Positions 1,667 to 24,160 of a DNA stretch of 64,000 bases are shown here, piece by piece. A program made the position numbers and the translations under genes. The notes below the pieces were generated by a model. That model was not told the DNA's origin. It was given only the letters and a program-made list of their open reading frames with translations, and searched no databases. Each line of letters opens with the position of its first letter. Positions within the stretch are counted from its first letter, which is position 1. Source of the DNA: Planctomycetota bacterium (lineage in GTDB: Bacteria; Planctomycetota; B15-G4); NCBI GenBank assembly GCA_038212275.1, contig JBBQUR010000005.1, positions 1-64,000 on the forward strand, written 5' to 3'.

Positions 1667-3331
1667 ATGTCTGGCGAGAGCACGGTAAAGTTGAGCAGTC
1701 GAACTCATGTCGTGTCGTGTCGCGTGCTGATGACGATGATGCTCCTCGGGACTGCCCCGGTGCTCGAGGCCGGCATACTCCGGGTTCCCCACGACTATCC
1801 TACGATCCAAGCGGCAATCGTCGCCGCGTCTTCGGGCGACCAGGTGGTCGTCGGCCCCGGTAACTATCCCGAGGCAATCAGCTTCCTCGGCAAGGACATC
1901 GTGGTCAGGTCGTCTGCTGGACACGACGAGACGACCATCGATGCGACGGGTCTGGACACAAGCGTCGTGTCTTTCACGAACAACGAGCCGACTACGGCGC
2001 GCCTGGAGGGTTTCGCGATCACGGGTGGGACGGGTCGGCCGCGCTTGGTGAGCCCGTCGAGCCCAGATCGCTATGGTGGTGGTATCTTTCTGGACTCGAC
2101 CGTCAACTACACTGGCCCCAAGCCGACGATCGTGAACTGTATTGTGTCGGGTAACTCCGCCAGTACGGCGGGAAGTGGGATTTACATCGGGTGGACCTGC
2201 TCCGCCATGGTGCGGGAGTGTGCATTCACCGAGAACGCCGGCGCCACATGCATAGAAAACTTTTGCAATTATACATTACCCTTGACGCTGATAGAATGTG
2301 TGATCAGCTCAAACTTCGGTGCAGGCGTTTCGGTGACAGGTTATGCCACGCTGAAAGATTGTCGCATCTGCCAGAATGCCGGAGACGGCGTCCAAACACT
2401 CACCTACAATGATACGCCGTCTTCTCTGGAGCGTTGCATCATCGACGATAACAAGGGAATTGGCGTCAGCAGCGAGAAGAACGTTTATGGATATGCACAA
2501 GTTGATCGGCTTAGCGAGTGTGTCGTTACGCGCAATCAGAAGGGCGGCATCCAGATCAGTTACTTTTTTACTGAAGCCCTGGAAGGCACGCTCGCTGAGA
2601 AAACAGTCATTGCCGACAATGGCTCTTTCGGGGTCTCCGTGTTCGGATACGACCCGGTACTAACTTACATGCCGACGCTTCTATACAATTGCACCGTCGT
2701 GAAGAACGCTGTTTCGGGTTACGGCTATATCGGGAACTCGATCGTGATAGGTCCTGTCTCTGGGTTATTGGAGGTCACCTACTCGGACATTTCAGGCGGC
2801 TACACCGGCGTCGGTAACATCGACGCCGACCCGCTTTTCGTGGATGCGGCCACAGGTAACTACCATCTGCAGGCTGGCTCGCCGTGTATCAACACGGGTC
2901 ACCCTTGGTCCGCACTCGACGCCGATGGCTCGCCCGCCGACATGGGAGCCATTGCCTACGAGCCTTGGAAGGGCCTCGGCGGTGGTGTTGCTGGCAGTGC
3001 AGGATTGCCCCTGCTCGTCGGCAACGGGCCGCTGATCGGAGGGGCGCCGGTCATCTTCGCTCTGACGAACGCCGTACCGAATGCGTCAGTGGCGTTGGTC
3101 GTGGGTGCACGCGCATTGAAAGCGGACTACAAGGGCGGCGTGTTCTGGCCGCAAGTCGACGTGATTGTCTCGGGGTGGCCGGCCGATGCGACGGGCTCAT
3201 TGGTCGTCGAGGGCCTCTGGCCTGCTGGCGTTCCTTCGGGCGTGTCGCTGTGGGCGCAGGTCTGGTTCGCGGACGATGGCGCTTCGTTCGGCTTCGCCGG
3301 GTCGAATGGCGTCCGCGGCACAGCACCGTGA
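1667..3331 (+). CDS. Secreted right-handed parallel beta-helix protein with shared C-terminal domain
   Basis: Signal-like N-terminus, VPHDYPTIQAAI / GNYPEAISFLGK / DPLFVD..GNYHLQAGSPCINTG motifs, beta-helix repeats, WPAGVPSG C-terminal domain; RBS AAGGAG. Confidence 0.8.
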   Translation: MSGESTVKLSSRTHVVSCRVLMTMMLLGTAPVLEAGILRVPHDYPTIQAAIVAASSGDQVVVGPGNYPEAISFLGKDIVVRSSAGHDETTIDATGLDTSVVSFTNNEPTTARLEGFAITGGTGRPRLVSPSSPDRYGGGIFLDSTVNYTGPKPTIVNCIVSGNSASTAGSGIYIGWTCSAMVRECAFTENAGATCIENFCNYTLPLTLIECVISSNFGAGVSVTGYATLKDCRICQNAGDGVQTLTYNDTPSSLERCIIDDNKGIGVSSEKNVYGYAQVDRLSECVVTRNQKGGIQISYFFTEALEGTLAEKTVIADNGSFGVSVFGYDPVLTYMPTLLYNCTVVKNAVSGYGYIGNSIVIGPVSGLLEVTYSDISGGYTGVGNIDADPLFVDAATGNYHLQAGSPCINTGHPWSALDADGSPADMGAIAYEPWKGLGGGVAGSAGLPLLVGNGPLIGGAPVIFALTNAVPNASVALVVGARALKADYKGGVFWPQVDVIVSGWPADATGSLVVEGLWPAGVPSGVSLWAQVWFADDGASFGFAGSNGVRGTAP

Positions 3332-3681
3332 GCGGGGCCTACCGACCCACTGATCTGTAAGAGCTGAGAAGGTATGTCGGGGGCTGGAGCCGGGCGCGGG
3401 CGCTGTGGGGCGGGGAACGGCGACTGTAAAATCCGGCTCTCGAAATTTGAGAACTGCCCTCGACACGCAAATTTACCCCTTTCCCGCGGCGTCGTAGCAG
3501 CCGGAAATCTTTCGGTCACGGCCTGCCTTCGCCGCCCATTGGAAATCGTGCGCGGAACCCACATTCGTAGGCATTGCCGCAGCCCTCTGGTGCGTCACAT
3601 CTCTCCTCCGGAGCGCCAGCAGCGACTGCTCCCTGCCGGCTCGTAGCTCTTAGCGAGCGAAATCGCTGCCTTGGGACATCA

Positions 3682-5430
3682 GTAAGCGTTGCACGACGCT
3701 TTGGATTACCCACAACTTGGGAGCAGGCGTGGATTGTTCGCCAAACTGCCGGAAATGTGATTGTCTTGCCATTCGATAAATTCTGGTAAAGTGTAGTTAA
3801 TGAGCGGCCGATGTTAAGTCAATCGGGAGATGGTAAGAGTGTGCGACGACGCCCCCTTGGTTTCCAGAGATCACGACGAACAAGGGCGTGCACATGGTGC
3901 TGGATCTTGGAACAACGTGTGCATGTGCACCGGGTTCCAGGAGGTTGGTCATGGCCATCACGAGCGGAAGAGGCAGATCTTTTAGCACCGACTCGGCGTC
4001 CAACGCGGAGGTAGATTGGGTTGATTGGGAGCTGCGGGAGTGTAACTTCAAAGACAAGCGGCTCGGCTCACGGCTTCGTGCCCTGCTGCATCAACTGGGA
4101 TCACATCCTGGAGCCAGTCTGCCGCTGGCGTGTCAGGACTGGGCCAGCACGAAGGCTGCCTGCCGGTTCCTGGACAATGACCGAGTGGATGAAGGAGAGA
4201 TCCTCGAGGGTCATTCGAGGCGACGCGTCGCCGCATCCCGCACGGCCAGGAGCCGATCCTCGTGCTCGACGACACGACGGAGTTTACCTTCAGGGCGAGC
4301 ATTCAGAGGCCGTTGGCAAGACGACGGTGACGCAGACGGGAGTCGGAGGAGATGGGCGCCCTCGTCTGCACACGGTGTGCGGCCTGCTGATGCACTCAAG
4401 TCTGGTCGTGACGGCCGAGGGATTGCCCCTGGGCGTGGCGGCCATCAAGTTCTGGTCGCGGGACAAGTTCAAAGGCACGAACGCGCTCAAGAAGAAAGTC
4501 AATCCGACGCGCGTGCCCATCGCGGAAAGGGAGAGCATGCGTTGGCTGGACAACGTCCGCCAGTCCTGCGCGCGGCTCGGCGAGCCCGCGCGCTGCGTCC
4601 ATATCGGCGATCGTGAGGCCGACATCTACGAGCTTTTCTGCTTGGCGTCTGAGGCAGGAACTCACTTCCTGATCCGGACGTGCGTGGACCGACTCGCTGG
4701 CGATGGTGGCCACACGATCGCGGCCGAGATGGCAGAAGTCTGCTATCTGGGCGTGCATCGCGTCGAGGTCGTGGATCGCGAGGGCCGTGCGTCGACCGCT
4801 CGCGCCGAGCTGCGGTATCGACGGGTCCGAGTGCTCCCGCCGATCGGGAAGCAGAGCCGTTACCCGAGCCTGGAGCTGACGGTCCTGCATGCCACCGAGC
4901 AAGGCCGACCCCGAGGGCGCGAGGCGATCATCTGGAAGCTGATCACGGACTTGCCGATCCGGTCGCGTGCAGACGCGGTCGAAAAATGTCGCTGGTACGC
5001 GCTGCGCTGGCGCATCGAGACGTATCACAAGATCCTCAAGTCCGGGTGTCGGGCCGAGGATCTGAAGCTGCGAACGGCTGAGCGGATCGTCCACCTGCTC
5101 GCCATCTTCTGCATTGTGGGCTGGCGCACTTTCTGGCTGACGATTGTGCAGCGGGCGACTCGCCTCGCACCAGCCGGCTTGGTCTTCACCGACTTGGAGA
5201 TTGATCTTCTCGCACGCATCGCAGGAAAGCGCCGCCCACGTGGAACCTTCCCGCTCCGCGACGGTCTGGTGCAACTCGCCTGCTTGGGCGGGTATCTGAA
5301 CCGAGCCAGCGATAGACTACCCGGCAACACCGTGAGCTGGCGTGGAATGGTGCGACTCGCGGACATCGCCATCGGCTACGAACTTGGGCGTGCGACTTGT
5401 GGGTAATCGAAAGCGTCGTGCAACGCTTAC
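3682..5430 (+). mobile_element. IS4-family insertion sequence bounded by 34-bp inverted repeats
   Basis: 3682..3715 is the reverse complement of 5397..5430 at 33/34 positions; encloses an IS4 (Tn5-like) transposase; no target-site duplication seen. Confidence 0.8.
3951..5406 (+). pseudogene. IS4-family transposase, frameshifted near 4210-4300
   Basis: N-terminal FKDKRLGSRL...CQDWASTKAACRFLDN in frame 3888..4616, LVLDDTTEF in a third frame, catalytic HIGDREADIYE and YALRWRIETYHKILKSG in frame 4021..5406; start approximate. Confidence 0.8.
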
Positions 5431-7877: not shown

Positions 7878-8270
7878 ATGGGTGCATTGCCCGACAACGC
7901 CGGCGGAACGATCCTCGTCGTCGAGGACGACGAGGCCTGCCGCAAGATGCTGCAGCGCCTGCTGCGCTCGCACGGCTGGACGGTCTGCGGCGCGGTGAAC
8001 GGCAAGGACGCCGTGTCGCTCTACACGGCGGTGCGTCCCGACGTCGTGCTCACCGACATCAACATGCCGGGCGGCGACGGCAACTCGCTCATCGCCGAGC
8101 TGCAGCGCACCGATCCGGGCGTGTGCATCCTTGCCATGACCGGCCTCTCGCGTCAGGACCTCCGCGTGGACCAGGCGCTGCGCCGCGGTGCGCGCTCGGT
8201 GCTCAGCAAGCCCTTTGACGGCGCGGCGCTGGAGCAGGCGATCCGGTCGGCGCTGCACCCCGCGCGCTAA
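7878..8270 (+). CDS. Single-domain response regulator receiver
   Basis: ILVVEDD, VLTDINMP (phospho-Asp), AMTG, LSKPF. Confidence 0.9.
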   Translation: MGALPDNAGGTILVVEDDEACRKMLQRLLRSHGWTVCGAVNGKDAVSLYTAVRPDVVLTDINMPGGDGNSLIAELQRTDPGVCILAMTGLSRQDLRVDQALRRGARSVLSKPFDGAALEQAIRSALHPAR

Positions 8271-8280
8271 AGCCGCGTGG

Positions 8281-8311
8281 CGCGTCACGCCCGACGGGCG
8301 GGCGTGACGCG
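8281..8311. terminator. GC-rich hairpin between convergent genes (likely terminator)
   Basis: CGCGTCACGCCCG-ACGGG-CGGGCGTGACGCG perfect 13-bp stem; no U-tract. Confidence 0.55.
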
Positions 8312-8315
8312 GGCG

Positions 8316-8345
8316 GCTCAGCTCAGCTCAGCTCAGCTCAGCTCA
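8316..8345. repeat. (GCTCA)6 microsatellite overlapping the actin gene stop
   Basis: Six exact copies; reads (TGAGC)6 on the minus strand. Confidence 0.9.
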
Positions 8346-9434
8346 GGAGAGCTGTTCCCAGAACTCGTTCGGCATGTCGTGCGCGATCTTGAGCGCGCCG
8401 TTGGCGCCGGCGTAGACCGGCTCTTCCACGGTGGTCACGTGGCCGCCGCCGAGGTGCGCGTCCATGTACGCGGCGATCGCGTCGCCCAGGCCCTTGATCT
8501 GGCTGCCGCCGCCGCCGAGCAGCACGTTGCCGCGCAGCACCGCCTGGAATTCCGGATCGAATGTTGCGATGAGCTTCGCGAGCGACTCGACGATCGGCGG
8601 CACGATGGAGAGGCAGGCGTCCTTCATCTCCTTGCTGATGTCGATGTCGGTCGGCTTGCCGTTCACGGGCCACTTCACGACGGCCTTGGCGGCGTTGGCG
8701 GAGACGTCCGCGAACTTCTCCTTGGCCTGCGTCAGCATGTTGTCGCTGAACTGGACCTCGGGGTGGTTCTTGCGGATGAGCTTCGCGAGCGTGCGGTCGA
8801 TGGAGTCGCCCGCGGCCGTGATCGTGATCTGGTCTTCCTCGTTGGGCATCGTGCCGTGCATGCGGCACAGGTCCGCGGTGCCGGCGCCGATGTCGATGAC
8901 CAGCGTGTCGGTGAGCTGGTCCAGCCCGTACGCGACGGTGAAGGGCTCCGACGCGACCATCGCGCTGTCCACTTCCTCGCGCGCCGCGTCGAAGATCGCC
9001 TTGCGGTTCTTGACGCTGGCCTGCGCCGGCGTGCCGATGACCGCGTAGATGAGCTGGTCCTTCTCGGGACGCGCCAGCGCGATGCAGTGCTTCACGAGGT
9101 CGCGCGCGGCGCGCATGTTGGCCTCGGCGGACTTGGCGTCACCCTCGTCGTTGCTGCCCTTGATGACGCCGCCCTCCAGCGGGCGGTACACGTCCAGCGA
9201 GAGACGGTGCTTGATGACGTCCGCACCGAAGAGCGGCCCGTCGCCGAGCAGCTTGCGCGACACGACGTCCTTCGGATAACCCACGAGCGAGTAGGTGTTG
9301 GCGCGCAGGCCGTTGCTGGAGGCGATGGCCGTGCGCGACGTGCCGAGGTCCATGCCGATCCACAGGATGCCGTCATCGCCGGCGTCCACCGAAGGGTCGT
9401 GGCCAGCTTGTTTGTCCTTGTTCGTGTTCGACAT
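8343..9434 (-). CDS. MamK-like bacterial actin
   Basis: Actin motifs GMDLGTSRT, IDIGAGTADLC, GGGGSQIKGL; MamK-type segments VGYPKDVVSRKLLG, AVIGTPA, SEPFTVAYGLD and terminal P..FWEQL; RBS GAGGAG before ATG 9434. Confidence 0.85.
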   Translation of the reverse strand: MSNTNKDKQAGHDPSVDAGDDGILWIGMDLGTSRTAIASSNGLRANTYSLVGYPKDVVSRKLLGDGPLFGADVIKHRLSLDVYRPLEGGVIKGSNDEGDAKSAEANMRAARDLVKHCIALARPEKDQLIYAVIGTPAQASVKNRKAIFDAAREEVDSAMVASEPFTVAYGLDQLTDTLVIDIGAGTADLCRMHGTMPNEEDQITITAAGDSIDRTLAKLIRKNHPEVQFSDNMLTQAKEKFADVSANAAKAVVKWPVNGKPTDIDISKEMKDACLSIVPPIVESLAKLIATFDPEFQAVLRGNVLLGGGGSQIKGLGDAIAAYMDAHLGGGHVTTVEEPVYAGANGALKIAHDMPNEFWEQLS

Positions 9435-9495
9435 GTTCACTCCTCGGAAAAGGCGGGGGTCGGGAATCGGTCAGGCCGGCGCGGGCGCCGGCGGG

Positions 9496-10371
9496 TCATG
9501 TGTTGGTGCGGATGCTGCCGGCCTGCGGGTCGGTGGAGCCAACCGGCGGGGCCGCCGTGCCGGCCGCAGCCGGAGTCCCACTATCGGCCGGCGCGGCAAT
9601 GATCCTTTGCAGCTCGACGTTGAGCTTGAAGATCTCCTCGAGCAGCTCGCGCTTGTGCTGATAGCCCGGATCCCCGGGCTGAAGCGGGCGGCCGATGTCG
9701 GCGAGGAAGGGCAGCCCTTCGGCCCCGGCGGCTCGCGCCCGGGCCAGCAGCAGGTCGGATTCCTCCAGCTTGCGGCGGAGCTTCTCGATGCGCCGCTGGA
9801 GCTGGGTGATGCGGGCGTTCTGCTCGCGGCGCACGCGCGCGGCCACGAGCACCCGGTAGTTCTCGAGGTCGGTCTCGACCAGGGCCAGTAGCTCGGCGAT
9901 CAGAGCCGGTGCCACCTCGTGCCCGGTCAGCAGGCCGGTCAGGTGCTCGGTGAGCTGTGCCCGCAGCTGGGAGAGCTCCTGCTCCATGGTGGAGGAGCCG
10001 GCCACCTGTTCCGTGGACAGCTCGCTTTCGGCGCGCTGCAGCTCGTTGCGCAGGCTGCCCTGCGCCGTGGTGAGCTGGACCTCCTGGCTCCGCAGCGACT
10101 CGAGCGTGGCGGCCAGGTCGTCGCGCTCCTTGACCAGCTGCATGAAGCGCAGCCGGGCCTCCTCGTTGAGGCCCTTGATGGAGTCGGCCTGCAGCTCCAG
10201 GCCCAGGGCGTGCAGCGTCTCGTCCACGGCGGTGGCCAGCAGGGTCTCGATGTCCGAGGCGCGCAGCACCGAGACGGAGCGGTGGCCTTCGCGCTTGAGG
10301 CGCTCGAGAGACTCCTGGCGTGCGGCGCCCCGCAGCAGGTGGATCACGTTGAAGGTGAGCTTGCGGCTCAT
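9496..10371 (-). CDS. Coiled-coil protein, likely co-transcribed with the MamK-like actin
   Basis: Leu/Glu/Gln/Arg heptad-rich helices, C-terminal KRELLEEIFKLNVELQ; ~60 bp upstream of the actin gene. Confidence 0.75.
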   Translation of the reverse strand: MSRKLTFNVIHLLRGAARQESLERLKREGHRSVSVLRASDIETLLATAVDETLHALGLELQADSIKGLNEEARLRFMQLVKERDDLAATLESLRSQEVQLTTAQGSLRNELQRAESELSTEQVAGSSTMEQELSQLRAQLTEHLTGLLTGHEVAPALIAELLALVETDLENYRVLVAARVRREQNARITQLQRRIEKLRRKLEESDLLLARARAAGAEGLPFLADIGRPLQPGDPGYQHKRELLEEIFKLNVELQRIIAAPADSGTPAAAGTAAPPVGSTDPQAGSIRTNT

Positions 10372-10581
10372 CGAAGTCCCCGGAGCCGTGACATCGGCCA
10401 ACCTGGCATCAAAGCTTGCGTGCGATCGTGTGAAACAGCAGTCTCAGGGTCAAATCGCGTCCAGTCCGCGCAGGTCCTTTTCGACTCGGCCGGGGCGGGC
10501 CCGACATTCCGGACCGCGGCCGATATCCAGCCGCGGCACTCCGCTGGTCGATGACGTCGGACACTTCCGAGGCAGCCGCGC

Positions 10582-11373
10582 ATGATCTGGCCTTTCGCAT
10601 CCCGCAAACAGCAGCTCATCGCGCCCCGGGTGGGGGCGCCGGGCGACATCGTGGTGCTGCTCGACAACGTCGTGGATCCGCGGCTCGTGGTCTACCACGA
10701 CCCGAACGGCTACCAGGCCGAGCAATACCGTGGTTTCCGCACGAATCTGAACGCGATGAACCCGAAGGACGAGCCGCGCACGCTCATGTTCACGTCGTCG
10801 CAGCCGCGCGAAGGCAAGTCCATCTCCGTGGCGAACATCGCGATGGCGCTCGCCGAGAACCAGCACCTCAAGGTCTGCCTCGTGGACGCGGACCTGCGTG
10901 CGGGCAGCGTGGCCAAGCTCTTCGGCGTGCGGCAGAGCCCCGGCCTCACGGACGTGATGCTGGACCGCGTCTCGCCGAAGCTCGCGCTCCAGGAGAGCCG
11001 CCTGCCGGGCCTCTCGATCATGACGGCCGGCCGGCACGTCGACAATCCTGGTGAGGTGCTCGCTTCCGACCACATGCAGGAGCTCATCGGCTGGCTCAAG
11101 CGCAGCTACAACTACGTGCTCTTCGACACCTCGCCCTGTCTGCCGTTCGCGGACGCGGCGGAGCTCTCCCGGTTCATCGACGGAGTGCTGCTCGTCGTGG
11201 CCATCGACGACACGCGTCGCAGCGAAGCGGGGCGTGCGATCACCGCGCTGCAGGCCGCCGGCGCCAACGTGGTGGGGACCTTCGTGACGGGCGCTCTGCC
11301 GTTGGACCGCATGTCCGATGCCGCCAGCTACGAAGCGGCCGAAGAGGCCCGGGACGCAGCGCGCAGCGACTGA
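10582..11373 (+). CDS. Stand-alone CpsD/CapB (BY-kinase, MinD/ParA-like) ATPase domain
   Basis: AEQYRGFRTNL, TSSQPREGKS (Walker A), VDADLR (A'), VLFDTSP (Walker B). Confidence 0.85.
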   Translation: MIWPFASRKQQLIAPRVGAPGDIVVLLDNVVDPRLVVYHDPNGYQAEQYRGFRTNLNAMNPKDEPRTLMFTSSQPREGKSISVANIAMALAENQHLKVCLVDADLRAGSVAKLFGVRQSPGLTDVMLDRVSPKLALQESRLPGLSIMTAGRHVDNPGEVLASDHMQELIGWLKRSYNYVLFDTSPCLPFADAAELSRFIDGVLLVVAIDDTRRSEAGRAITALQAAGANVVGTFVTGALPLDRMSDAASYEAAEEARDAARSD

Positions 11374-11454: not shown

Positions 11455-12402
11455 ATGACATGCAGCGTGTCATCACACCCACCAGAGACCGGTTCCAGCG
11501 GGCGGCCCAAGGATCCCGAGGCTGAGGAATACCTCTCGATCGGCTCTCTGGCGGAGGTCACGGGAATCGCCTGCGACACCATCCGCGTGTGGGAGCGCCG
11601 CTTCGGCCGGCCCGTGCCCGTGCGCCTGCCCTCCGGGCATCGACGCTACACGCGGGACGATGTGCGCTGGCTGCGCCGCATCGCGGAGGCGCTGGCCCGC
11701 GGGCACAAGCTCGGTGCCGTCATCCAGGCCAACGAGGCCGAACTCAGCCGCCTTCTCGAGCGCCGCGATGCCGCCGTCGCGGACTGGGAACTGCGCCAGC
11801 TTGCCGACATGGCGCGCGACTTCCGCAGCGCGGAGCTGACGGCCGCCCTGCGCGCCGCGTGGTCCTCGATGCCTCCGTGCGAGTTCCTCGAACGGCGCAT
11901 CGGGCCGCTGCTCTCCGGAGTCGGCGAAGCCTGGGTGGAAGGCACCCTGCAGGTGCGCCACGAACACTTCCTGAGCGAGGTCATCGAGGATCTGCTGCGT
12001 TCGCTGCGCGTGGGCGTCCCGGTGCCGACGGGTGCGCCGGTGGTGATGCTGGCCACGCTGGACGGTGAGGACCACTGCCTCGGCCTGCAGATGGCGGCGC
12101 TGGTGGCGGCACTTGCAGGCATGCGGCCGTGCATCCTCGGGCGCGGCGCTCCGCTGGTCGAGATCGAGGCCGCCGTCCGCGAGTCCGGTGCGCGCGGCCT
12201 GGCCATCGGCGTGTCGCTCGCGAACGCGGGCGTGGCGACGGATCGCAAGCTGGCCGAACTGCGCAGCAGCATCCCGGGCCGCGTGCGCATCCTGGTCGGC
12301 GGCGCGAGCGCGCGCGGCGTGCGCCGCGGTCCGCGCGGCATCGACTATCTCGCGGAGCCGGGCTTCGCGGCCTTCCAGCGCTGGCTCGCTTCGTTGCGTT
12401 GA
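11455..12402 (+). CDS. MerR-family regulator with cobalamin-binding domain (CarH/LitR-like)
   Basis: MerR HTH (IRVWERRFG...GHRRY), W-x9-EH motif (WVEGTLQVRHEH), GEDHCLG B12-ligand motif, ILVGG. Confidence 0.85.
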   Translation: MTCSVSSHPPETGSSGRPKDPEAEEYLSIGSLAEVTGIACDTIRVWERRFGRPVPVRLPSGHRRYTRDDVRWLRRIAEALARGHKLGAVIQANEAELSRLLERRDAAVADWELRQLADMARDFRSAELTAALRAAWSSMPPCEFLERRIGPLLSGVGEAWVEGTLQVRHEHFLSEVIEDLLRSLRVGVPVPTGAPVVMLATLDGEDHCLGLQMAALVAALAGMRPCILGRGAPLVEIEAAVRESGARGLAIGVSLANAGVATDRKLAELRSSIPGRVRILVGGASARGVRRGPRGIDYLAEPGFAAFQRWLASLR

Positions 12403-14044: not shown

Positions 14045-15460
14045 ATGCGCATCGTCCTGGCCGTCCACGGTTACCCGCCGGAGCTGGCGGGCGGCACGGA
14101 GCACAGCGTGCAAGCGCTGGCGCGCGGGCTGGCAGGAGCGGGGCACCACGTCGCGGTCATCGCAGGCACGAACCACTACGAGCAGGGTTTCCGCACCAGT
14201 GCGACGACCGATCGCGACCCGGCGAGCGGCGCCAGCTTCCCGGTACACCGCATTCACCGCGGCGACCTCTACTTCGGGCACTGGCAGAAGAGTCGCAGCA
14301 CGCGCGCCAGCCTCGCGTTCGCGGCGTTGCTCGAACAGCTGCGTCCCGACGTGCTGCACGTGCACCACTGGCTGCGCCTTTCCAGCGATCTTGTCGCGCG
14401 CGCCGCCGCCGCTCGCGTGCCCGCCGTCGTCACGCTGCACGACCTGTGGACGACCTGCCTCGTCACCTTCCGCATCCGGCCGGACACGCAGAGCTTCTGC
14501 GAGGCGTCTCTCGCGCCGGATCCATGCCTCGCTTGCGTGGCGCACGTGCCGCCGCGCACGCCGTGGCGCACGTCGCGAGAGCTGGAGCTCGAGCTCCAGC
14601 GCCATCGCGCGGACCTGCAACGCGAACTGCGTCTCGCGCGCATCGTCACGGCCCTCTGCCGCGACCAGGCAGAAACGCTGTCGCGACTCGGACCATGGCC
14701 CTCAGGCACCGCGCCTGCAATCCACGTCCTGCCGCCCGGGAGGGATCTGTCACTGCCGCCGGCGGTGCCGCTTGCCTCGCCCTCCGGCCTGCGCCGTCTG
14801 ATCGTCGGCAGCTGGGGCGGCCTGCACTGGTTGAAGGGCACGGATCTGCTGATCGAAGCACTCAGCCGGCTGCAGCGCGAGGGCGGGCCGGTGGTGGAGT
14901 TGCACCTTGCCGGAAGCGAGGCCGAGACGTCAGTGGTTGCGAAGCTGCGCGCCGCGGCCGCTGGGCTGCGCGTGACCTTTCACGGACCCTTCGGAGCCGG
15001 CGGCCTCCCGGGCCACCCGGTCACGGCCGTACATGCCATGGTCAATGCCACGCGCGCTCACGAAACCTGGGGCCTCGTGCTCGACGAGGCCATCGCCCTG
15101 CGCCTCCCGATGGTGCTCCCGCGCGCGGGAGCTTTTCCCGAACACGTGGGAGAGCACCGGGGCGCGCTGTTCTATCCGCCTGGAGATGCAGGTGCGCTTG
15201 CGGCGAGCCTTGCGCGGCTTGCCACCGAGCCCGACCTGCTCGCGACGCTGCGGGCGCAGCTCCCGCCGCTGCACTCCGTGCTGCCCAGCCTGCGTGAGCA
15301 CGCCGATGCCGTGCTCGCCTGCTACGCGGCAGCATGTTCACAAGGCCCTCCCGACGCTCCTGCATTCGCTGCGGAGCAGGATGCGCAGGCCTCGCGGGCC
15401 GAGGCTGCATGGGATGTCGAACTCTCGCACCGGAGCGCCGAGGAACTGGGACTCGCATGA
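14045..15460 (+). CDS. Glycosyltransferase family 4 (GT-B)
   Basis: HGYPPELAGGTE, PDVLHVHH, VVTLHD, ETWGLVLDEA (Ex7E). Confidence 0.85.
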   Translation: MRIVLAVHGYPPELAGGTEHSVQALARGLAGAGHHVAVIAGTNHYEQGFRTSATTDRDPASGASFPVHRIHRGDLYFGHWQKSRSTRASLAFAALLEQLRPDVLHVHHWLRLSSDLVARAAAARVPAVVTLHDLWTTCLVTFRIRPDTQSFCEASLAPDPCLACVAHVPPRTPWRTSRELELELQRHRADLQRELRLARIVTALCRDQAETLSRLGPWPSGTAPAIHVLPPGRDLSLPPAVPLASPSGLRRLIVGSWGGLHWLKGTDLLIEALSRLQREGGPVVELHLAGSEAETSVVAKLRAAAAGLRVTFHGPFGAGGLPGHPVTAVHAMVNATRAHETWGLVLDEAIALRLPMVLPRAGAFPEHVGEHRGALFYPPGDAGALAASLARLATEPDLLATLRAQLPPLHSVLPSLREHADAVLACYAAACSQGPPDAPAFAAEQDAQASRAEAAWDVELSHRSAEELGLA

Positions 15461-15481
15461 GCGCTGCGACGGCAACTGCTC

Positions 15482-16063
15482 CTACCAGCGCTCGCGCGCA
15501 CAAAGCAGCAGCAGCGGCGTGAGCGAGAGTCCGTCCACGATCTCGCCGGCCAGCAGCATGTCGCGCAGCTCGGCGTGTGCGAACCAGCGTATGCCCAGCA
15601 CTTCATTGCGGTCGAAGTCCGTCGACGCGAGCGGCGCCACGTCCGCCTCGAAGAGGTGGAACTCCTGGTTGCCACTGCCGTAGCTGGGAAAGTACTGCTG
15701 TAGCGGGCGCATTGACAAAGCCTGATGGCCCGTCTCCTCTTCCAGCTCGCGCTCGGCGGCTTCGGCAAGGCCCTCGTCGGGTTCCGCGCCGCCCGACGGC
15801 AGGGCCCATACGTGCCGGTCCACGATGAAGCGGTACTGGCGGATGAGCAGGATCTCGCCGGGCCGTCGCGGCACGACGCCCACCGCACCCTTGCGATAGT
15901 CGATCGTGAAATAGGTGGTGATGCCGCGGTCCGGCATGCGCACGCGGCTGCGAAACACCGCGAAATACGGGTTGGAGAGCAGCTCCTCCCGGTCGAGCAC
16001 GTCCCAGCCCTTCTCCTGGGACGAACCGTCGGTGAACTCGTCGGGTGCTGGAGCCATGGGCAT
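15482..16063 (-). CDS. NUDIX hydrolase (ADP-ribose/NDP-sugar pyrophosphatase-like)
   Basis: LIRQYR and Nudix box PSGGAEPDEGLAEAAERELEEETG. Confidence 0.9.
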   Translation of the reverse strand: MPMAPAPDEFTDGSSQEKGWDVLDREELLSNPYFAVFRSRVRMPDRGITTYFTIDYRKGAVGVVPRRPGEILLIRQYRFIVDRHVWALPSGGAEPDEGLAEAAERELEEETGHQALSMRPLQQYFPSYGSGNQEFHLFEADVAPLASTDFDRNEVLGIRWFAHAELRDMLLAGEIVDGLSLTPLLLLCARERW

Positions 16064-16150
16064 TCGGGCCTCGCGCGGGTCGGATGGAACGAGGATAGCG
16101 GACAGCCTCGGGCCTCGTGTCTCGCACCGCACTCCGGCAAGGCAGTTAGG

Positions 16151-17374
16151 ATGTGGTTGATGAGGAGCAGCGGGAGCAGCGACGAGCCTTCGGCGCCGGC
16201 AGCGCGCGCACCGTACCCCGCGGCGTTGCTCGGCTCGTGGCGCGCCGCCGCGGACAGCGCCGTGGCCCGGCACCTGCACGTGGTCGTGCCGGACGTCGCC
16301 CGCTACGAGGTGCACTGCGAGCCCGGCTCGGCATCAAACTTCGGCAGCGCCTACGCCCGGCAGTTCGGCGCCCGCCCGCCCGTGGTGTTGAGCGATCACC
16401 GTGTGCATCGCCTGCACGGCAAGGCCTTCCTGGAGTCGTTCCGCACGGCGGGCCTGCAGCCGCAGCTGCTGCTCGTCCCGGACGGCGAGCGCAGCAAGAA
16501 CCTTGACGCCTTCACCAGGCTGCTCGACCGCCTCGCGGAGCTTGAATGCGATCGCCGCACGGTGCTGGTCAATTTCGGCGGCGGCGTGATTTCGGATCTC
16601 GGCGGTTTCGTGGCTTCGGCTTACATGCGCGGCCTGTCGTACGTGAACGTGCCCACGACGCTGCTGGCGCAGCTCGACGCGAGCATCGGCGGCAAGGTCG
16701 CGGTGAACACCGCGCGTGCCAAGAATCTCATCGGTGCCTTCCATCACCCGGAGCTGGTCACCTGCGATCCGGCCCTGCTTGCGACGCTCTCCGGGCGCGA
16801 CATGCGCAGCGGACTTGCCGAGGGCATCAAGGTGGCGATCATCGCCAGCCCCGAGCTGTTCGCGTGGATCGAGACGCACCGGCACGAGGTGCTGGCGGGC
16901 GACCCTGTGTCGCTCACAGGGCTTGTCGCCGAGGCCGCGCGTCTGAAACTGGCGCTGCTGGAGCACGATCCCTACGAGGCCGATCTGCGCCGGCCGCTCA
17001 ACTTCGGGCACACCATCGGGCATCCCGTGGAGACGGAGCTGGGCTACCGCGGCATCCGCCACGGCGAAGCGGTCGCCATCGGCATGGGCGTGGCCACGCT
17101 CGTCGCGCGCCGGCGGGGGCTCATCGACTCCGCCGACAGCGGCCGGATCCTGGACCTGTTGACCGCGTGCGGGCTGCTGTGGTCCGGCGAAGCGCTGCGC
17201 CCCGACGGCATCCTGGAACACCTGCGGACGGTGCGCCTCATCCGCGGCCGGGCGCTGCACTTCGTCCTGCCGCGGGCTCTCGGGGAGGTGCTCATCACCG
17301 ACGACGTCTCCTCCGCCGACCTCGTGCGCGGCTTCGAGGACTACGCCTGCCTCGTCCGCGAGCGCCTGTCATGA
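16151..17374 (+). CDS. Sugar-phosphate cyclase of the 3-dehydroquinate synthase superfamily (2-epi-valiolone-synthase-like)
   Basis: GGGVISDLGG, YMRG, PTTLLAQLDASIGGK, KNLIGAF, AEGIK, LNFGHTIGH, HGEAV; C-terminal DKK of AroB replaced by VRLIRG. Confidence 0.8.
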   Translation: MWLMRSSGSSDEPSAPAARAPYPAALLGSWRAAADSAVARHLHVVVPDVARYEVHCEPGSASNFGSAYARQFGARPPVVLSDHRVHRLHGKAFLESFRTAGLQPQLLLVPDGERSKNLDAFTRLLDRLAELECDRRTVLVNFGGGVISDLGGFVASAYMRGLSYVNVPTTLLAQLDASIGGKVAVNTARAKNLIGAFHHPELVTCDPALLATLSGRDMRSGLAEGIKVAIIASPELFAWIETHRHEVLAGDPVSLTGLVAEAARLKLALLEHDPYEADLRRPLNFGHTIGHPVETELGYRGIRHGEAVAIGMGVATLVARRRGLIDSADSGRILDLLTACGLLWSGEALRPDGILEHLRTVRLIRGRALHFVLPRALGEVLITDDVSSADLVRGFEDYACLVRERLS

Positions 17375-17859
17375 GCGACGCTCGCGCCAGCGACGCTGCG
17401 CCGCGCGTCGTGCATCTGGACGAGCTGCCGTTGCAGGACGTGGTGGCGCACGGCGGTGACGGACGCATCGGCTTCCGGCGCGTGCTCGGACAGAGCGCCC
17501 GCGATGCGCAGCACACCGCGGGCGCCTGGCACTTCGTGGACTACGCCGTGCTGCCGCCGGGCGCAAGTATCGGCCTGCATGCGCACGGCGAGAACGAAGA
17601 GCTTTACCTCGTCCTGCAAGGCGAAGGCCTGATGCAGCTCGGCGATCGCAGCGTGCGCGTGCGTGCTGGACACCTCATCGTGAATCCGCCGGGCGGCACG
17701 CACGGCCTGCGCAACGACGGCAACGTGCCGCTGCGCCTGTTCGTCGTCGAGGTGCCGCTGGCCGTGCCGCCTCATGCGGCACTGGCCGTGCCACTGGATG
17801 CGCCACTGGCCGTGCCGCCGGCAGGCCCCGCAGCACCTTTCTCGACACCTGCGCGTTGA
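17371..17859 (+). CDS. Cupin-domain protein
   Basis: IGLHAHGENEELYLVL and PGGTHGLRN; ATGA overlap with the cyclase. Confidence 0.85.
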   Translation: MSDARASDAAPRVVHLDELPLQDVVAHGGDGRIGFRRVLGQSARDAQHTAGAWHFVDYAVLPPGASIGLHAHGENEELYLVLQGEGLMQLGDRSVRVRAGHLIVNPPGGTHGLRNDGNVPLRLFVVEVPLAVPPHAALAVPLDAPLAVPPAGPAAPFSTPAR

Positions 17860-18623
17860 ACGGCCAGGCCGAGGCGCCGCTGCTCGACGACGTCACCGCC
17901 CTGGTGATGGCCGGCGGTCTCGGCACGCGCATGGCCGGCAGCCAGCCCTCGCTGCCGAAGCCTCTCGTGCGCGTCGGCGGCCACGCGCTGCTCGATCTCT
18001 CGCTGCGCCGGCTTCTGGCTGCGGGCGTGCGGGACATTCGCCTCGCCCTGCGCCACGAGGCTGCGGCGATCGAGGCGCACGTGCGTGCGCTGCCCGACGT
18101 CCCCGCCGGATGCGTGCGCTTCGTCGTGGAGCCGCAGCCGCTGGGCACCATCGGCGCCGTGTCGCTGCTTGCCGACGTGCAGCGCACGCTGCTCGTCACC
18201 AACGGCGACCTGCTGTCGGGGATCGACCTGCGCGCGCTCGGCGCCTTCCATCGCCGACGTGGCGCGGCGCTCAGCATCGCCACGCACGACGAGCACCATC
18301 GGCTGCGGTTGGGAGAGGTGGTCTCCGGGCCCGACGACGCCGTGATCGAATACGTCGAGAAGCCGGTCAAGAGCTACCGCATCTCGTCCGGAACCTACGT
18401 CATGCAGCCTGAGGTCATGGCGCTGGCGGCGCCCGGCGAATGGCTTGGCTTCCCGGAGCTCGCGCGGCGCGCGATCGATGCAGGCCTCAGTGTGCTGGAG
18501 TGCTTTCACCAGGAGCCGTGGCTGGACGTCAACGACGAGGACGACCTGCAAGCCGCCGAAGCGCTGCTGGCCAACGATCCTGCGGCCTTTGGCCTGACGC
18601 ACCCCGCGTTGCGACACCCATGA
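17856..18623 (+). CDS. Sugar-phosphate nucleotidyltransferase
   Basis: MAGGLGTRM, PKPLV, EPQPLGTIGA, NGDLL, YVEKP, WLDV; TTGA overlap. Confidence 0.9.
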   Translation: MNGQAEAPLLDDVTALVMAGGLGTRMAGSQPSLPKPLVRVGGHALLDLSLRRLLAAGVRDIRLALRHEAAAIEAHVRALPDVPAGCVRFVVEPQPLGTIGAVSLLADVQRTLLVTNGDLLSGIDLRALGAFHRRRGAALSIATHDEHHRLRLGEVVSGPDDAVIEYVEKPVKSYRISSGTYVMQPEVMALAAPGEWLGFPELARRAIDAGLSVLECFHQEPWLDVNDEDDLQAAEALLANDPAAFGLTHPALRHP

Positions 18624-20773
18624 GCTCCGCGCACTGGCTCGGCCTGGACATCGGCGCCACCAAGCTGCTCGCGCTCGCGCTTGACGAGCGCGGCGCCGTC
18701 CTGGCGTGCGAGACCGCTCCGACGCGTCGCGAGCGCGGTCCCGACGACGTCCTCTCGCGCGCCGCGGACCTGGCGCAGCAGGTCTCCGCACGTGCGGGAG
18801 GCTTGCCGGCCGGCGCGGGCGTCGGTGTTGCCGGCCTCGTGGATCACGCCACCGGGCGCGTGCTGAGTTCGATCATGCTCCCGGGCTGGGATGACTGGCC
18901 GCTGGCCGAGCGTCTCGCCGCGCGGCTCGGCATCCCGTGCCTCGCGGACAACGACGCGACGGCGGCGGGATGGGGCGAGTTCGTCGCGCTGGGTTCGCCG
19001 CCCGATCTCGACCTCGTGCTGCTCACGGTCGGGACCGGTATCGGGGGCGCGGCGATCCTCGGCGGCCGACTGCACCGTGGCGCGTCGGAAACGGCGGGGG
19101 AGTTCGGCAACATGAGCATCCACTGGCAGGGCGAGACCTGCTGGTGCGGCTCGCGTGGCTGCCTCAACATGCTGGCCTCCGGCTCGGCGATGGCGCGTCG
19201 TGCCGCGGAGCTTGGTTGCGTGCCGGCCGTCGCGGCCGTCGGCGGCGCGATGGGCACCCGGAGCGCCACGGAAGCACGCACGGCGGATCGCGGCGCAACG
19301 CTCACGCTGCACGACGTGGCCGCCGCCGCGGCCGCAGGCGATTGGGCCGCGCACGCCGCGATCGACGAGGGCGCGCGCGCTCTGGGCGCCGGCCTCGCGA
19401 ACATCGTGAACACCTGGAATCCGTCGCGCATCTCCCTGTGCGGCGGCGTGCTCGCGCTGGGCGACGGCTGGCTGAGCAGCGTGCGCGAGGAAGCCGGTCG
19501 CCGCGCGCTCGCCGTGCCCTTCGCCCGCGTGAGCATCGGACCCGCCGTGCACGGCGCCAGCACCGGCGCCTTCGGTGCCGCCTGCCTGGCGCAACGGGCC
19601 TTCGCGCCCGTCCCGGCGGAAAGCTCCCGACACGCGGCCGGTCCTGCGGGCGGCGGAATGCACGTCCCCTCGAAGGACTACCGCGCGCAATACGCCGCGC
19701 TGATGCCCGAGCTGCTGCCGCTGCTGGAGCGCACGCTGCTGGACGACGAGCCCGTGCTCGGCCGCGCCGTGACGGAGTTCGAAGCTGCCTTCGCGGCGTA
19801 CTGCGGCGTCGCGCATGCCATCGGCGTCGGCTCGGGCTTCGACGCGCTAGTCCTCGCGCTGCGCGTGCTGGGCGTCGGCCCGGGCGATGAAGTGATCACC
19901 GCCGCGAACACTTTCACCGGAACGGTCACGGCCATCCTTGACGCGGGTGCGCGCCCCGTGCTCGTGGATCCCGACGTGCGCACGCTGAACCTTTCCTTGG
20001 ACGGTGTGCGCGCGGCGCTGACGCCGCGCACGAAGCTCGTCCTCCCGGTGCACCTCTACGGCCGCCTTGCGCCGATGGCCGGGCTGCTCGCGCTGTGCGC
20101 GGACGCGGGCGTTCCGATCCTCGAAGATGCGGCTCAGGCGCACGGAGCGCGCGCGGGGGGCCGCCGGGCGGGCGCCTTCGGTCGACTCGGCGCCTTTAGC
20201 TTTCATCCGAGCAAGAACCTGGGAGCCTTCGGCGACGGCGGCGCGATCACCACCGACGACGCCGCGCTCGCGACCACGCTGCGCGAACTGCGCCACCTGG
20301 GCAAGCGCGACAAGCACCACTTCGCGCACGTGGCGCCCAATACCAAGCTGGACACGCTGCAGGCCGCGCTGCTGCTGCTGAAGCTGCCCAGGCTGGATGC
20401 TCAGAACGCAAGGCGCCGCGCGCTGGCGGCCCGATATCGCGCCGGGCTGTCGGACTGTGAGGGCCTGCTGCTGCCGGAGGATCCGGGCGACGAGTCGCAC
20501 GTCTGGCACCAGTACGTGGTGCGCAGCGCGCGTCGCGACGCGCTGCGTGCGGAGTTGAAGGCCGCCGGCATCCAGGCGGGCCTGCACTATCCCGTCGCGC
20601 CGCACGAGCAGCCGCTGGGCGTGCCGCTCGTGGTTCCGGCCCGCGGCCTGCCCGTGGCCGAGGCGTCCGCGCGCAGCGTGCTGTCTCTGCCCATCGCACC
20701 TGAGCTGAGCGATGCGCAGATCGGCATGGTCATCGAGGCGGTGCGCGCTGCGCATCACGCGCGGCCGTCGTGA
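18620..20773 (+). CDS. ROK-family kinase fused to DegT/DnrJ/EryC1/StrS aminotransferase
   Basis: ROK: GLDIGATK, DNDA, VGTGIGG, CWCGSRGCL; aminotransferase from ~19658: EDAAQAHG, FSFHPSKNLGAFGDGG; no stop between; ATGA overlap. Confidence 0.9.
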   Translation: MSSAHWLGLDIGATKLLALALDERGAVLACETAPTRRERGPDDVLSRAADLAQQVSARAGGLPAGAGVGVAGLVDHATGRVLSSIMLPGWDDWPLAERLAARLGIPCLADNDATAAGWGEFVALGSPPDLDLVLLTVGTGIGGAAILGGRLHRGASETAGEFGNMSIHWQGETCWCGSRGCLNMLASGSAMARRAAELGCVPAVAAVGGAMGTRSATEARTADRGATLTLHDVAAAAAAGDWAAHAAIDEGARALGAGLANIVNTWNPSRISLCGGVLALGDGWLSSVREEAGRRALAVPFARVSIGPAVHGASTGAFGAACLAQRAFAPVPAESSRHAAGPAGGGMHVPSKDYRAQYAALMPELLPLLERTLLDDEPVLGRAVTEFEAAFAAYCGVAHAIGVGSGFDALVLALRVLGVGPGDEVITAANTFTGTVTAILDAGARPVLVDPDVRTLNLSLDGVRAALTPRTKLVLPVHLYGRLAPMAGLLALCADAGVPILEDAAQAHGARAGGRRAGAFGRLGAFSFHPSKNLGAFGDGGAITTDDAALATTLRELRHLGKRDKHHFAHVAPNTKLDTLQAALLLLKLPRLDAQNARRRALAARYRAGLSDCEGLLLPEDPGDESHVWHQYVVRSARRDALRAELKAAGIQAGLHYPVAPHEQPLGVPLVVPARGLPVAEASARSVLSLPIAPELSDAQIGMVIEAVRAAHHARPS

Positions 20774-23103: not shown

Positions 23104-23179
23104 CCGGGCCGGCCGCGCGGTGCCGTCGCGAACGGTCGGGCGTGAACGACCGGTTCGGCGAGAACGAGACGAGGTGCGC

Positions 23180-24160
23180 ATGAAACTCTCGGTCTGCCCG
23201 CAACCGCTCTATCGACTGGGTCTTGAGGGCGCGCTGGACGAGATCGTGAAGCTCGGGCTCACGGCGCTGGAGCTGCCGGTCGATGGGCGCAGCCCGCTCG
23301 TCTCGCTCGACACGCTGCTCGCGGGCGGCCGCGGGCCGGGCAGCGCTGCGGCGCTGAGCAGCGAGCTGCGCGCGCGCGGCCTGTCCCTCTCCGCGATCTC
23401 CAATCATCAGGAGGGGCAGCTTCTGCTCGGCCCTTACCAGCGCGACACGGACGCAATCTGCGCGGGCGATGCCGCACGCAAGGCTGCATTCGCGCGCGAG
23501 CGGCTGTTGCAGAGCGCACGTCTCGCGTCCGAGCTGCAGGTGCCCGTGCTCGTCGGCTTCGTCGGTTGCGAAGACTGGAGCCGGTTCTTCCCGTGGCCCG
23601 ACGCCCAGGGCTGGGAGTCGATGCAGCCGCGCTTCACCGAGGTCGTCGGCGGTCTGCTCGACGACCTCGAGCGGCTCGGCGTGAGCTTCGCGCAGGAACC
23701 GCACCCGCGGCAGATCGTCTACAACACGGAGACGGCGCTGCAGTCCGTCGCCTGGCTGGGCGGGCACAGACGCTGGGGCTTCAATCTGGATGCCGGCAAT
23801 CTGCTGCTGGCCGGATGCGACCCGGTGGTCTTCGCGCAGGAGCTTGGCGCGCGCGTGCTGCACGTTCACGCCAAGGATGCCGAGCTGGTCGCGCACAATG
23901 CACGTCGTTCGGGACTGCTCGCGCACGGCGACTGGGATCGCAGCGACCGCGGCTTCCGCTTCCGCATCCCCGGCTGGGGTGACGTGTCGTGGCGACGCCT
24001 GCTCTCCGAGCTGCAGCTGGGCGGGTATTCCGGCTGGCTGGCCATCGAGCACGAGGATCCCGTCTTCGACGCACTGGACGGACTGACCAAGGCCATCGCG
24101 GCGCTGAAGCCTCTGCTTCCCGATGGTCCGCGTCCCGACGCCAGGCAGCGCTGGTGGTAG
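23180..24160 (+). CDS. Sugar phosphate isomerase/epimerase (xylose-isomerase-like TIM barrel)
   Basis: FAQEPHP, GFNLDAGNL, HVHAKD, FRIPGWGDVSW, AIEHED; RBS GAGG. Confidence 0.85.
   Translation: MKLSVCPQPLYRLGLEGALDEIVKLGLTALELPVDGRSPLVSLDTLLAGGRGPGSAAALSSELRARGLSLSAISNHQEGQLLLGPYQRDTDAICAGDAARKAAFARERLLQSARLASELQVPVLVGFVGCEDWSRFFPWPDAQGWESMQPRFTEVVGGLLDDLERLGVSFAQEPHPRQIVYNTETALQSVAWLGGHRRWGFNLDAGNLLLAGCDPVVFAQELGARVLHVHAKDAELVAHNARRSGLLAHGDWDRSDRGFRFRIPGWGDVSWRRLLSELQLGGYSGWLAIEHEDPVFDALDGLTKAIAALKPLLPDGPRPDARQRWW

Follow-up and report, generated by a model that had tools for sequence, protein, structure and literature searches.

A MamK-family actin with a proposed helical adaptor and a kinase-like ATPase in a planctomycete genome without detected magnetosome genes

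Most of what is understood about bacterial actins comes from the proteins they work with, as in the pairs ParR/ParM, MamJ/MamK and RodZ/MreB. In a window of 64,000 nucleotides from a Planctomycetota bacterium (the whole stretch analyzed here; positions 1–64,000 of contig JBBQUR010000005.1, assembly GCA_038212275.1), we found a MamK-family actin gene (8343..9434, reverse strand), directly preceded on the same strand by a gene for a helical partner protein (9496..10371) and, divergent from the latter, a gene for a P-loop ATPase resembling the catalytic domain of bacterial tyrosine (BY) kinases (10582..11373). We consider it probable, at roughly 65%, that these genes form a chromosomal module of Planctomycetota that is unrelated to magnetosomes, in which a dedicated helical adaptor and the BY-kinase-like ATPase place an actin filament under signaling control. 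An earlier, sequence-only reading of the window had suggested a two-gene system of filament and adaptor, positioning some cargo or compartment other than magnetosomes.

The open reading frame (ORF) of the actin extends over 8343..9440 on the reverse strand, and a GTG start at 9440 would yield 365 amino acids. Because a GAGGAG ribosome-binding site lies 5 nt ahead of an ATG at 9434, and the database copy of the protein (P0001) has 363 residues, the gene most likely spans 8343–9434 and encodes 363 amino acids. Its translation contains LVGYPKDVVSRKLLG, SEPFTVAYGLD, DIGAGTADLC and the terminal MPNEFWEQLS, so that all the motifs quoted in the sequence-only reading (VGYPKDV..KLLG, SEPF.V.YGLD, DIGAGT.D.C and P..FWEQL) are present. 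The preference for MamK over MreB expressed there agrees with family models, structure searches and the tree described below. The protein scored 410.6 bits against the NCBIfam MamK model (NF040964, cut-off 400), matching profile positions 1–330 of 335, versus 64.7 and 50.2 bits against the MreB models PRK13927 and TIGR00904; the MamK cut-off was reached in none of 14 control genomes. In a search of the Protein Data Bank (PDB), the best-matching MamK structure (5JYG) scored 270.2 bits (E = 2.3e-79, query residues 25–364), compared to 110.5 bits for BeeR (8R2N) and 31.9 bits for MreB (7BVY), and the NCBIfam BeeR model gave 187.6 bits, far under its cut-off of 530. The alignment with 5JYG matched DLGTS, SEPF, DIGAGT.D, GGGS and the C-terminal xxWxQL helix to the window actin, in which E165, D31, G185–T188 and G310–S313 are invariant across 24 relatives. 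We take the SEPF glutamate to be the counterpart of E143 in AMB-1 MamK, where it has a catalytic role. Judged by its sequence, the protein is a MamK-family actin and not an MreB.

Relatives of this actin are numerous, with 3834 of 8000 scored candidates matching at E ≤ 0.001. Among the best 120, the named ones were nearly all from Planctomycetota metagenome-assembled genomes (MAGs), several of them annotated as 'MamK family actin-like protein'; many database copies carry the automatic annotation 'rod shape-determining protein MreB'. The MamK cut-off was passed in 74 of 301 sampled genomes of the phylum. The class to which the organism belongs is represented by 42 genomes, each of them a MAG, of which 39 had a match at E ≤ 1e-60 and 35 exceeded the MamK cut-off. 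A scan of species genomes, which needed an alignment as query since a single protein gave no relative, returned 560 related actin loci, the best 80 of which all came from MAGs (74 labeled with Planctomycetota lineages and 6 simply 'bacterium'). Clustering at 50% identity placed the whole planctomycete group under one representative, 59% identical to the window actin; a total of 915 cluster representatives matched the window actin at E ≤ 0.001, and named members of the other clusters belonged to Verrucomicrobiota, Nitrosomonadaceae, Nitrospira, Gemmatimonadota, Acidobacteriota, ANME-2 archaea and Nitrospinota.

Phylogenetic placement was assessed with a quick IQ-TREE run over 113 rows, with SH-aLRT support only and with its deeper branches unresolved. 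The window actin belonged to a clade with starred support (95) whose 45 rows comprise planctomycete sequences together with one representative named as Verrucomicrobiota and one as Nitrosomonadaceae. Three magnetotactic anchors, namely P0158 (463 bits to 5JYG and labeled by this PDB match), an AMB-1 MamK-like protein and a fusion of FtsZ and MamK that carries a magnetosome-protein name, fell into a separate starred (99) clade of 13 rows; BeeR representatives had a clade of their own (100, starred), and the organism's own MreB sat on a branch 6.3 long. The phylogeny, one of the checks proposed in the sequence-only reading, therefore groups the actin neither with MreB nor with the three magnetotactic anchors. 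The same data set included 14 cluster representatives of 523–1232 amino acids with a C-terminal MamK-family domain (P0133, P0138, P0139, P0142, P0144–P0146, P0148, P0150–P0153, P0159 and P0162), which form one starred (100) clade and whose long N-terminal parts matched no Pfam family in the seven that were scanned, as well as a 768-residue protein (P0184) consisting of a full FtsZ fused to MamK.

Directly upstream of the actin, the partner ORF (9496..10401, reverse strand) would encode 301 amino acids from a TTG start; the version starting at the ATG at 10371 has 291, matches the database copy P0121 in length as well as the end coordinate given in the sequence-only reading, and corresponds to the coiled-coil gene of about 290 codons noted in the sequence-only reading. 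Partner and actin are separated by a spacer of 55–61 nt, and a G+C-rich inverted repeat without a T-run (CCGGCGC..GCGCCGG, within 9441–9495 on the reverse strand) directly follows the partner's stop codon in this spacer and may form a stem-loop in the mRNA between the two cistrons. No Pfam or NCBIfam family, and no DNA-binding family, matched the partner above cut-off. Its AlphaFold2 model (mean pLDDT 77.7, pTM 0.50) consists of long predicted helices at residues 62–124, 127–150, 155–217 and 237–259, which would fit the label of a coiled coil, for which no dedicated predictor was run. Candidate look-alikes from a protein-atlas search were generic coiled coils at 0.84–0.85, below the guide value of 0.9, and were not used.

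A direct search with the partner retrieved just 11 full-length relatives. When a profile built from these 11 was compared with 5295 ORFs of at least 80 amino acids from 112 loci, it matched 91, of which 90 directly precede the actin gene and share its strand. From these 90 upstream ORFs we derived an 89-position hidden Markov model (HMM) of a C-terminal domain with the consensus ...LERRIxKLTxxLxxTExEL...K.IDPGVASIYRxVQGL...KKxLMxxIFxANLxL; N-termini differ between the partners. This domain, the predicted actin-binding part, covers 9598..9858 (reverse strand) of the window. It was found in 97 ORFs of the related loci, always at the C-terminus of the protein; a domain-bearing ORF was present at 95 of 110 related loci, next to the actin on its upstream side, and likewise preceded the actin at all 30 loci examined from the organism's class, as expected for the conserved gene pair that the sequence-only reading had envisaged. 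Within the window genome, the domain profile matched a single one of 38103 ORFs, the partner itself (70.7 bits, residues 201–280 of the stop-to-stop ORF), the next best reaching 15.6 bits (E = 0.03). Querying 5.8 billion proteins with the domain alignment gave 279 matches among 8000 scored candidates, named exclusively 'hypothetical protein', 'GGDEF domain-containing protein' or 'diguanylate cyclase' and, one Paceibacteria label excepted, assigned to Planctomycetota. At one locus (L109), a second GGDEF-type ORF with the adaptor domain (15924–17072, forward strand; 93.9 bits) lies 5 kb downstream of the actin and adjoins no detected actin gene, the sole such exception among the 97 ORFs.

Complementarily, we predicted the complex of the actin (24-row alignment) with partner residues 165–265 (32-row alignment) in three runs accompanied by three controls. 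The runs scored 0.69, 0.02 and 0.74, giving a median of 0.69, versus 0.00 for the best control; in the calibration of this approach, 116 of 157 solved complexes attained the mark, as did 2 of 215 mismatched pairs. Partner pLDDT in the prediction was at least 61. The best run placed the interface at partner residues 223–258, essentially the last helix (237–259), in or beside the C-terminal domain, and at actin residues 143–176, 196–198 and 347–364. Nearly invariant residues on both sides (K240, F248, N251 and L254 of the partner; Y171, G172, D355–P357, W361 and L364 of the actin) are part of this predicted interface, and the terminal P..FWEQL motif of the actin falls within the predicted docking site. 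Presumably, this is the cleft separating subdomains Ia and IIa, which is bound by ParR in the case of ParM and by WH2-type motifs in the case of actin; subunit contacts and end-binding factors also make use of it in actin-family filaments. The prediction, which the sequence-only reading had listed among its checks, supports a model in which the partner would bind the actin via its last helix.

The position of the predicted site brings up an alternative function for the partner, which could act in the longitudinal-contact cleft as a polymerization regulator, that is a capper, nucleator or inhibitor, instead of a cargo adaptor. The predicted interface comprises the C-terminal helix and the Ia/IIa cleft, the latter a site of end-binding factors, and no conserved cargo gene was found; against this, a protein with a long helical body and N-terminal modules that vary across the family could equally well be a tether. 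Sequence alone would not distinguish this explanation from the adaptor we favor, and we rate it as improbable while still giving it more weight than any of the other alternatives.

The third gene of the module is separated from the partner by a divergent intergenic region (10372..10581) that presumably holds both promoters; scanning 8100–10700 revealed no sigma-70-like promoter or terminator. The ATPase (10582..11373, forward strand; 263 amino acids) is of the CapB/Wzc catalytic-domain type. It exceeded the cut-off of TIGR01007 (eps_fam, 'polysaccharide biosynthesis tyrosine autokinase'; 125.8 bits, cut-off 108.05) and remained below that of TIGR03018 (139.5 versus 230.65 bits), with readable Walker A (REGKS), Walker A' (VDADLR) and Walker B (VLFDTSP) motifs. 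Together with an N-terminal ...AEQYRxxRTNL... these are features of the cytoplasmic BY-kinases CapB, PtkA and Wzc; in contrast to them, the window ATPase occurs in linkage with an actin module, and our literature search found no paper on such an association.

This linkage depends on the architecture of the partner. Among the 97 adaptors, 34 share with the window partner a 'type A' N-terminal region (approximately residues 1–125, 9997..10371 on the reverse strand), recognized by an N-terminal HMM, 39 have a GGDEF-like domain, and 24 are of other type or truncated. An ATPase homolog adjoined the adaptor, in divergent or co-directional arrangement, at 26 of the 34 type A loci versus none of the 39 GGDEF-type loci, and at locus L049 a P-loop domain of the same kind is fused straight to the adaptor C-terminal domain; possibly, it is the type A region that connects the partner to the ATPase. 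Of the 30 loci from the organism's class, 19 showed the ATPase, although just 1.5 kb of flank was covered. The Pfam GGDEF model (PF00990) matched 5 of 12 GGDEF-type adaptors tested, and the GG[DE]EF position reads RDDRL, LDDRI, SGDRV or TEDLV in the four that were inspected, indicating that this domain is degenerate. In the tree, actins with GGDEF-type adaptors occupy one starred (97) subclade of 18 rows to which type A is basal; actin and adaptor have therefore diversified together. No other neighbor was common to at least eight loci when four loci were used as references.

Taken against these results, the proposed two-gene system of filament and adaptor holds as far as the conserved pair is concerned, yet needs to be extended here to three genes, with a BY-kinase-like ATPase that is linked to the type of partner. 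The suggested positioning of a cargo or compartment fared less well, given the absence of any further conserved neighbor in that comparison and N-termini that look like signaling modules, not organelle anchors.

The ATPase could alternatively point to a polysaccharide or envelope system, in which the BY-kinase regulates exopolysaccharide synthesis while actin and adaptor position or scaffold the machinery. Its match to the autokinase model and the presence of a GT4 glycosyltransferase and a set of sugar-modifying genes 3–13 kb away would be in line with such a role. The glycosyltransferase neighborhood, however, is not conserved with the module, no gene for Wza, Wzx, Wzy or a co-polymerase was found beside the kinase among the window ORFs scanned, and the 39 GGDEF-type modules do without the kinase altogether, which leads us to regard this explanation as rather unlikely.

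Segregation of DNA by a ParMRC/Alp-like system is in our view very unlikely. Here, the actin would move DNA, with the partner as ParR-like, centromere-binding adaptor and the P-loop ATPase as accessory. The layout of an actin with a small adjoining adaptor, the neighboring P-loop ATPase and the predicted docking of the adaptor's terminal helix in the cleft presumably used by ParR are all reminiscent of ParM-ParR. In contrast to that system, the window adaptor lies upstream and not downstream of its actin and shows no DNA-binding domain, and a repeat search over 10350–10650 yielded just short two-copy repeats and no iterated, centromere-like array. The ParM model scored 18.8 bits on the actin (cut-off 417), the ATPase bears BY-kinase and not ParA motifs, and GGDEF-like domains are present in sister adaptors. 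Furthermore, the locus resides on a 268-kb chromosomal contig (assembly of 4.65 Mb in 40 contigs, 91% complete) and is kept in single copy across the class, indicating vertical conservation.

A second MreB-type actin guiding cell-wall synthesis is hardly credible. The best Pfam match of the window actin is indeed the generic MreB_Mbl family (73.3 bits), and automatic annotation names many of its copies MreB, but the dedicated MreB models demand 293 (PRK13927) and 365.75 bits (TIGR00904), several times what the protein attained. A separate, true MreB is encoded on contig C8, with 467.8 bits to Pfam MreB_Mbl and 77 bits to the MamK model, and is the sequence found on the very long branch of the tree. 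Pfam scans of 35 window ORFs detected neither mreC or mreD nor any mam family, as the sequence-only reading had stated; mad genes were not part of this search. No FtsZ match was obtained in the 91%-complete genome, which fits the phylum.

Extending the magnetosome search to the whole genome, another of the proposed checks, left all tested models far below their cut-offs. The sole cation-diffusion-facilitator (CDF) gene scored 160 bits with MamM and 120 bits with MamB (cut-off 350 for both), and two LemA genes, located 63 kb away or on different contigs, reached 76 and 68 bits with MamQ (cut-off 250). The best MamP and MamO scores were 26 (cut-off 300) and 69 bits (cut-off 800), and MamI had no match; the search did not cover MamA, MamE or the mad genes. 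These candidate CDF and LemA genes do not form a cluster, and no CDF or LemA homolog was present among the ORFs of the 112 loci, a set that takes in 1.18 Mb of sequence surrounding 80 related actin genes. By these profile searches, the genome shows no magnetosome genes. Planctomycete MamK loci that lack the adaptor (such as L003, L005 and L008) were considered as magnetosome clusters and ruled out, since no mam-like families came up when 14–20 kb surrounding three such loci were scanned with Pfam. Labels of the type 'MamK family' in metagenomes are no markers of magnetotaxis.

An ordinary mamK displaced from a magnetosome cluster, whether this lies at another place of the genome or within the 9% that is not assembled, can practically be dismissed: the actin passes the MamK model, the assembly is incomplete and fragmented, and Planctomycetota with magnetosome clusters are listed in the literature (PMC7602337 and PMC7449369), but the Mam models stay far below cut-off with only one CDF gene present, the actin recurs in 39 of 42 class genomes with the same non-mam neighbors, no CDF or LemA homolog accompanies any locus, and the protein lies outside the clade of the magnetotactic anchors.

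We return to the module of actin, adaptor and BY-kinase-like ATPase, several parts of which have known counterparts. The closest is saltatorellin, the MamK-like actin of the non-magnetotactic Saltatorellus ferox Poly30, a member of a deep planctomycete lineage (Wiegand et al., 2019 preprint, bioRxiv 10.1101/817700) that is also named in one sentence of PMC11032199. According to the preprint's passages on this protein, it assembled into filaments when present in E. coli and in M. gryphiswaldense and was proposed, as a hypothesis, to drive shapeshifting (10.1101/817700). The two systems share a non-magnetotactic Planctomycetota host that also possesses MreB (10.1101/817700, same passages). The C-terminus of saltatorellin implied by the printed reverse primer, ...YWEQLK, resembles the ...FWEQLS of the window actin, a likeness of motif and lineage only, and the printed forward primer had no match in the 42 class genomes or in 5 further genomes. 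In contrast to the window locus, the preprint's MamK and saltatorellin passages contain no partner gene, adaptor domain or kinase (10.1101/817700). A MamK-like actin without magnetosomes had thus already been described as saltatorellin (10.1101/817700), which makes the window actin by itself less novel than first assumed.

MamK of magnetotactic bacteria (5JYG/5LJV) belongs to the same NCBIfam family and shares SEPF and the xxWxQL helix with the window actin, which scores 410 bits with the MamK model, compared to 508 bits for the representative matching 5JYG at 463 bits. Both have helical or coiled-coil partners, in magnetotactic bacteria MamJ (Magnetospirillum) or the coiled-coil proteins Mad20, Mad23, Mad25 and Mad26 (Desulfovibrio magneticus; as given in the consulted part of PMC12748827). 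The window actin differs in lacking magnetosome genes, in its separate starred clade and in having a partner of no recognized family. BeeR, the tubule-forming actin of Verrucomicrobiota, is likewise a MamK relative of non-magnetotactic PVC bacteria (8R2N; consulted part of PMC11929497), and both proteins have a short N-terminal extension; they differ in the low scores of the window actin with the BeeR model and structure and in the clade that BeeR has to itself. The actin alone is therefore not new, MamK without magnetosomes being known from saltatorellin and BeeR. What appears to be new is the adaptor domain and the modular, kinase-linked design; searching the literature, we found no description of the adaptor domain, the gene pair or the module.

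On the proposed mechanism, the actin would polymerize with ATP, for which it has kept the catalytic glutamate of SEPF as well as the phosphate and adenosine motifs. The adaptor, helical and probably dimeric, would hold or regulate the filament through its C-terminal domain, its last amphipathic helix sitting in the Ia/IIa cleft of the actin against the C-terminal DMPxxFWEQL helix. Its N-terminus would couple the filament to the kinase-like ATPase; in sister modules, the place of this ATPase may be taken by a GGDEF domain that is degenerate, or by a P-loop fused to the adaptor. Assembly or attachment of the filament could in this way come under the control of tyrosine phosphorylation or nucleotide signaling.

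Several results weigh against the proposed module and temper our estimate. The window partner is the most degenerate of its family, lacking the GVASIYRxVQGL segment and scoring 70.7 bits where relatives score about 100–120. In the complex prediction, one run out of three reached no more than 0.02, and the stated agreement of contacts across runs was at least 0%. The adaptor domain was missing from 15 of 110 loci; five of these have less than 500 nt of upstream sequence, and because the other ten have at least 1263 nt, the adaptor is not obligatory for the actin clade. The ATPase tail has one tyrosine, compared to YY in several homologs, and no membrane activator was found near the ATPase among the window ORFs scanned, a search that did not extend to the rest of the genome; both make its kinase activity uncertain. 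Finally, genome completeness is 91%, and the NCBIfam models used for Mam proteins are possibly tuned to Alphaproteobacteria.

Two adaptor-less loci have other genes near their actin. At L144 (G030:C271, 2508–8642), a downstream ORF of 1413 amino acids contains a second, weaker actin-like match (171.6 bits), and at L145 (G246:C506, 6429–9348) a different, coiled-coil-like ORF of 340 amino acids and a Ser/Thr kinase lie nearby; these ORFs may represent further types of partner.

As candidates for the cellular role of the module, we infer morphogenesis, division or budding, polarity, or positioning of some cargo, and consider morphogenesis or division most attractive because of the shapeshifting hypothesis for saltatorellin and the lack of a detected FtsZ. 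Extending this further, we tentatively suggest, as a scenario that is possible yet doubtful, that Planctomycetota devoid of FtsZ use MamK-type filaments across the phylum together with modular adaptors that would hold the filaments at their ends or sides. A single conserved C-terminal helix domain would dock in the actin cleft, while swappable N-termini (tyrosine-kinase-coupled, pseudo-diguanylate-cyclase or P-loop) would confer phosphotyrosine or cyclic-nucleotide control, and the system would drive shape change, budding or division, or polarity. If true, such a signal-gated actin would be a bacterial counterpart of eukaryotic actin under regulated actin-binding proteins. The pair is widespread in Planctomycetota, and its gene neighborhoods and domain architectures connect the putative filament with either a tyrosine-kinase-like ATPase or GGDEF-like domains. 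For the Saltatorellus actin, proposed driver of shapeshifting, no partner had been known, and a candidate partner family can now be offered, making the role of non-magnetosome MamK filaments directly testable.

The remainder of the window holds several features of separate interest. Directly after the ATPase follows a gene (11455–12402, forward strand) for a CarH-like MerR regulator with B12-binding domains (Pfam MerR_1 and B12-binding_2; NCBIfam CarH 98.4 bits, cut-off 400), which is not conserved with the module. The region 14045–24160 encodes the GT4 glycosyltransferase, a 549-residue protein with 3-dehydroquinate-synthase domains, a fusion of ROK and DegT/DnrJ aminotransferase domains, a fusion of GH4 and radical-SAM/SPASM domains and a xylose-isomerase-like TIM barrel; it looks like a set for sugar or cyclitol biosynthesis, reminiscent of aminocyclitol or modified-sugar pathways. 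At the start of the contig (1–5400), G+C content is lower, with 0.59 at 2001–4000 versus about 0.70 elsewhere. Finally, a DDE_3 transposase (52943–54058) adjoins a Schlafen-group-3-like helicase (54119–56119), which may be a mobile or defense-related insertion.

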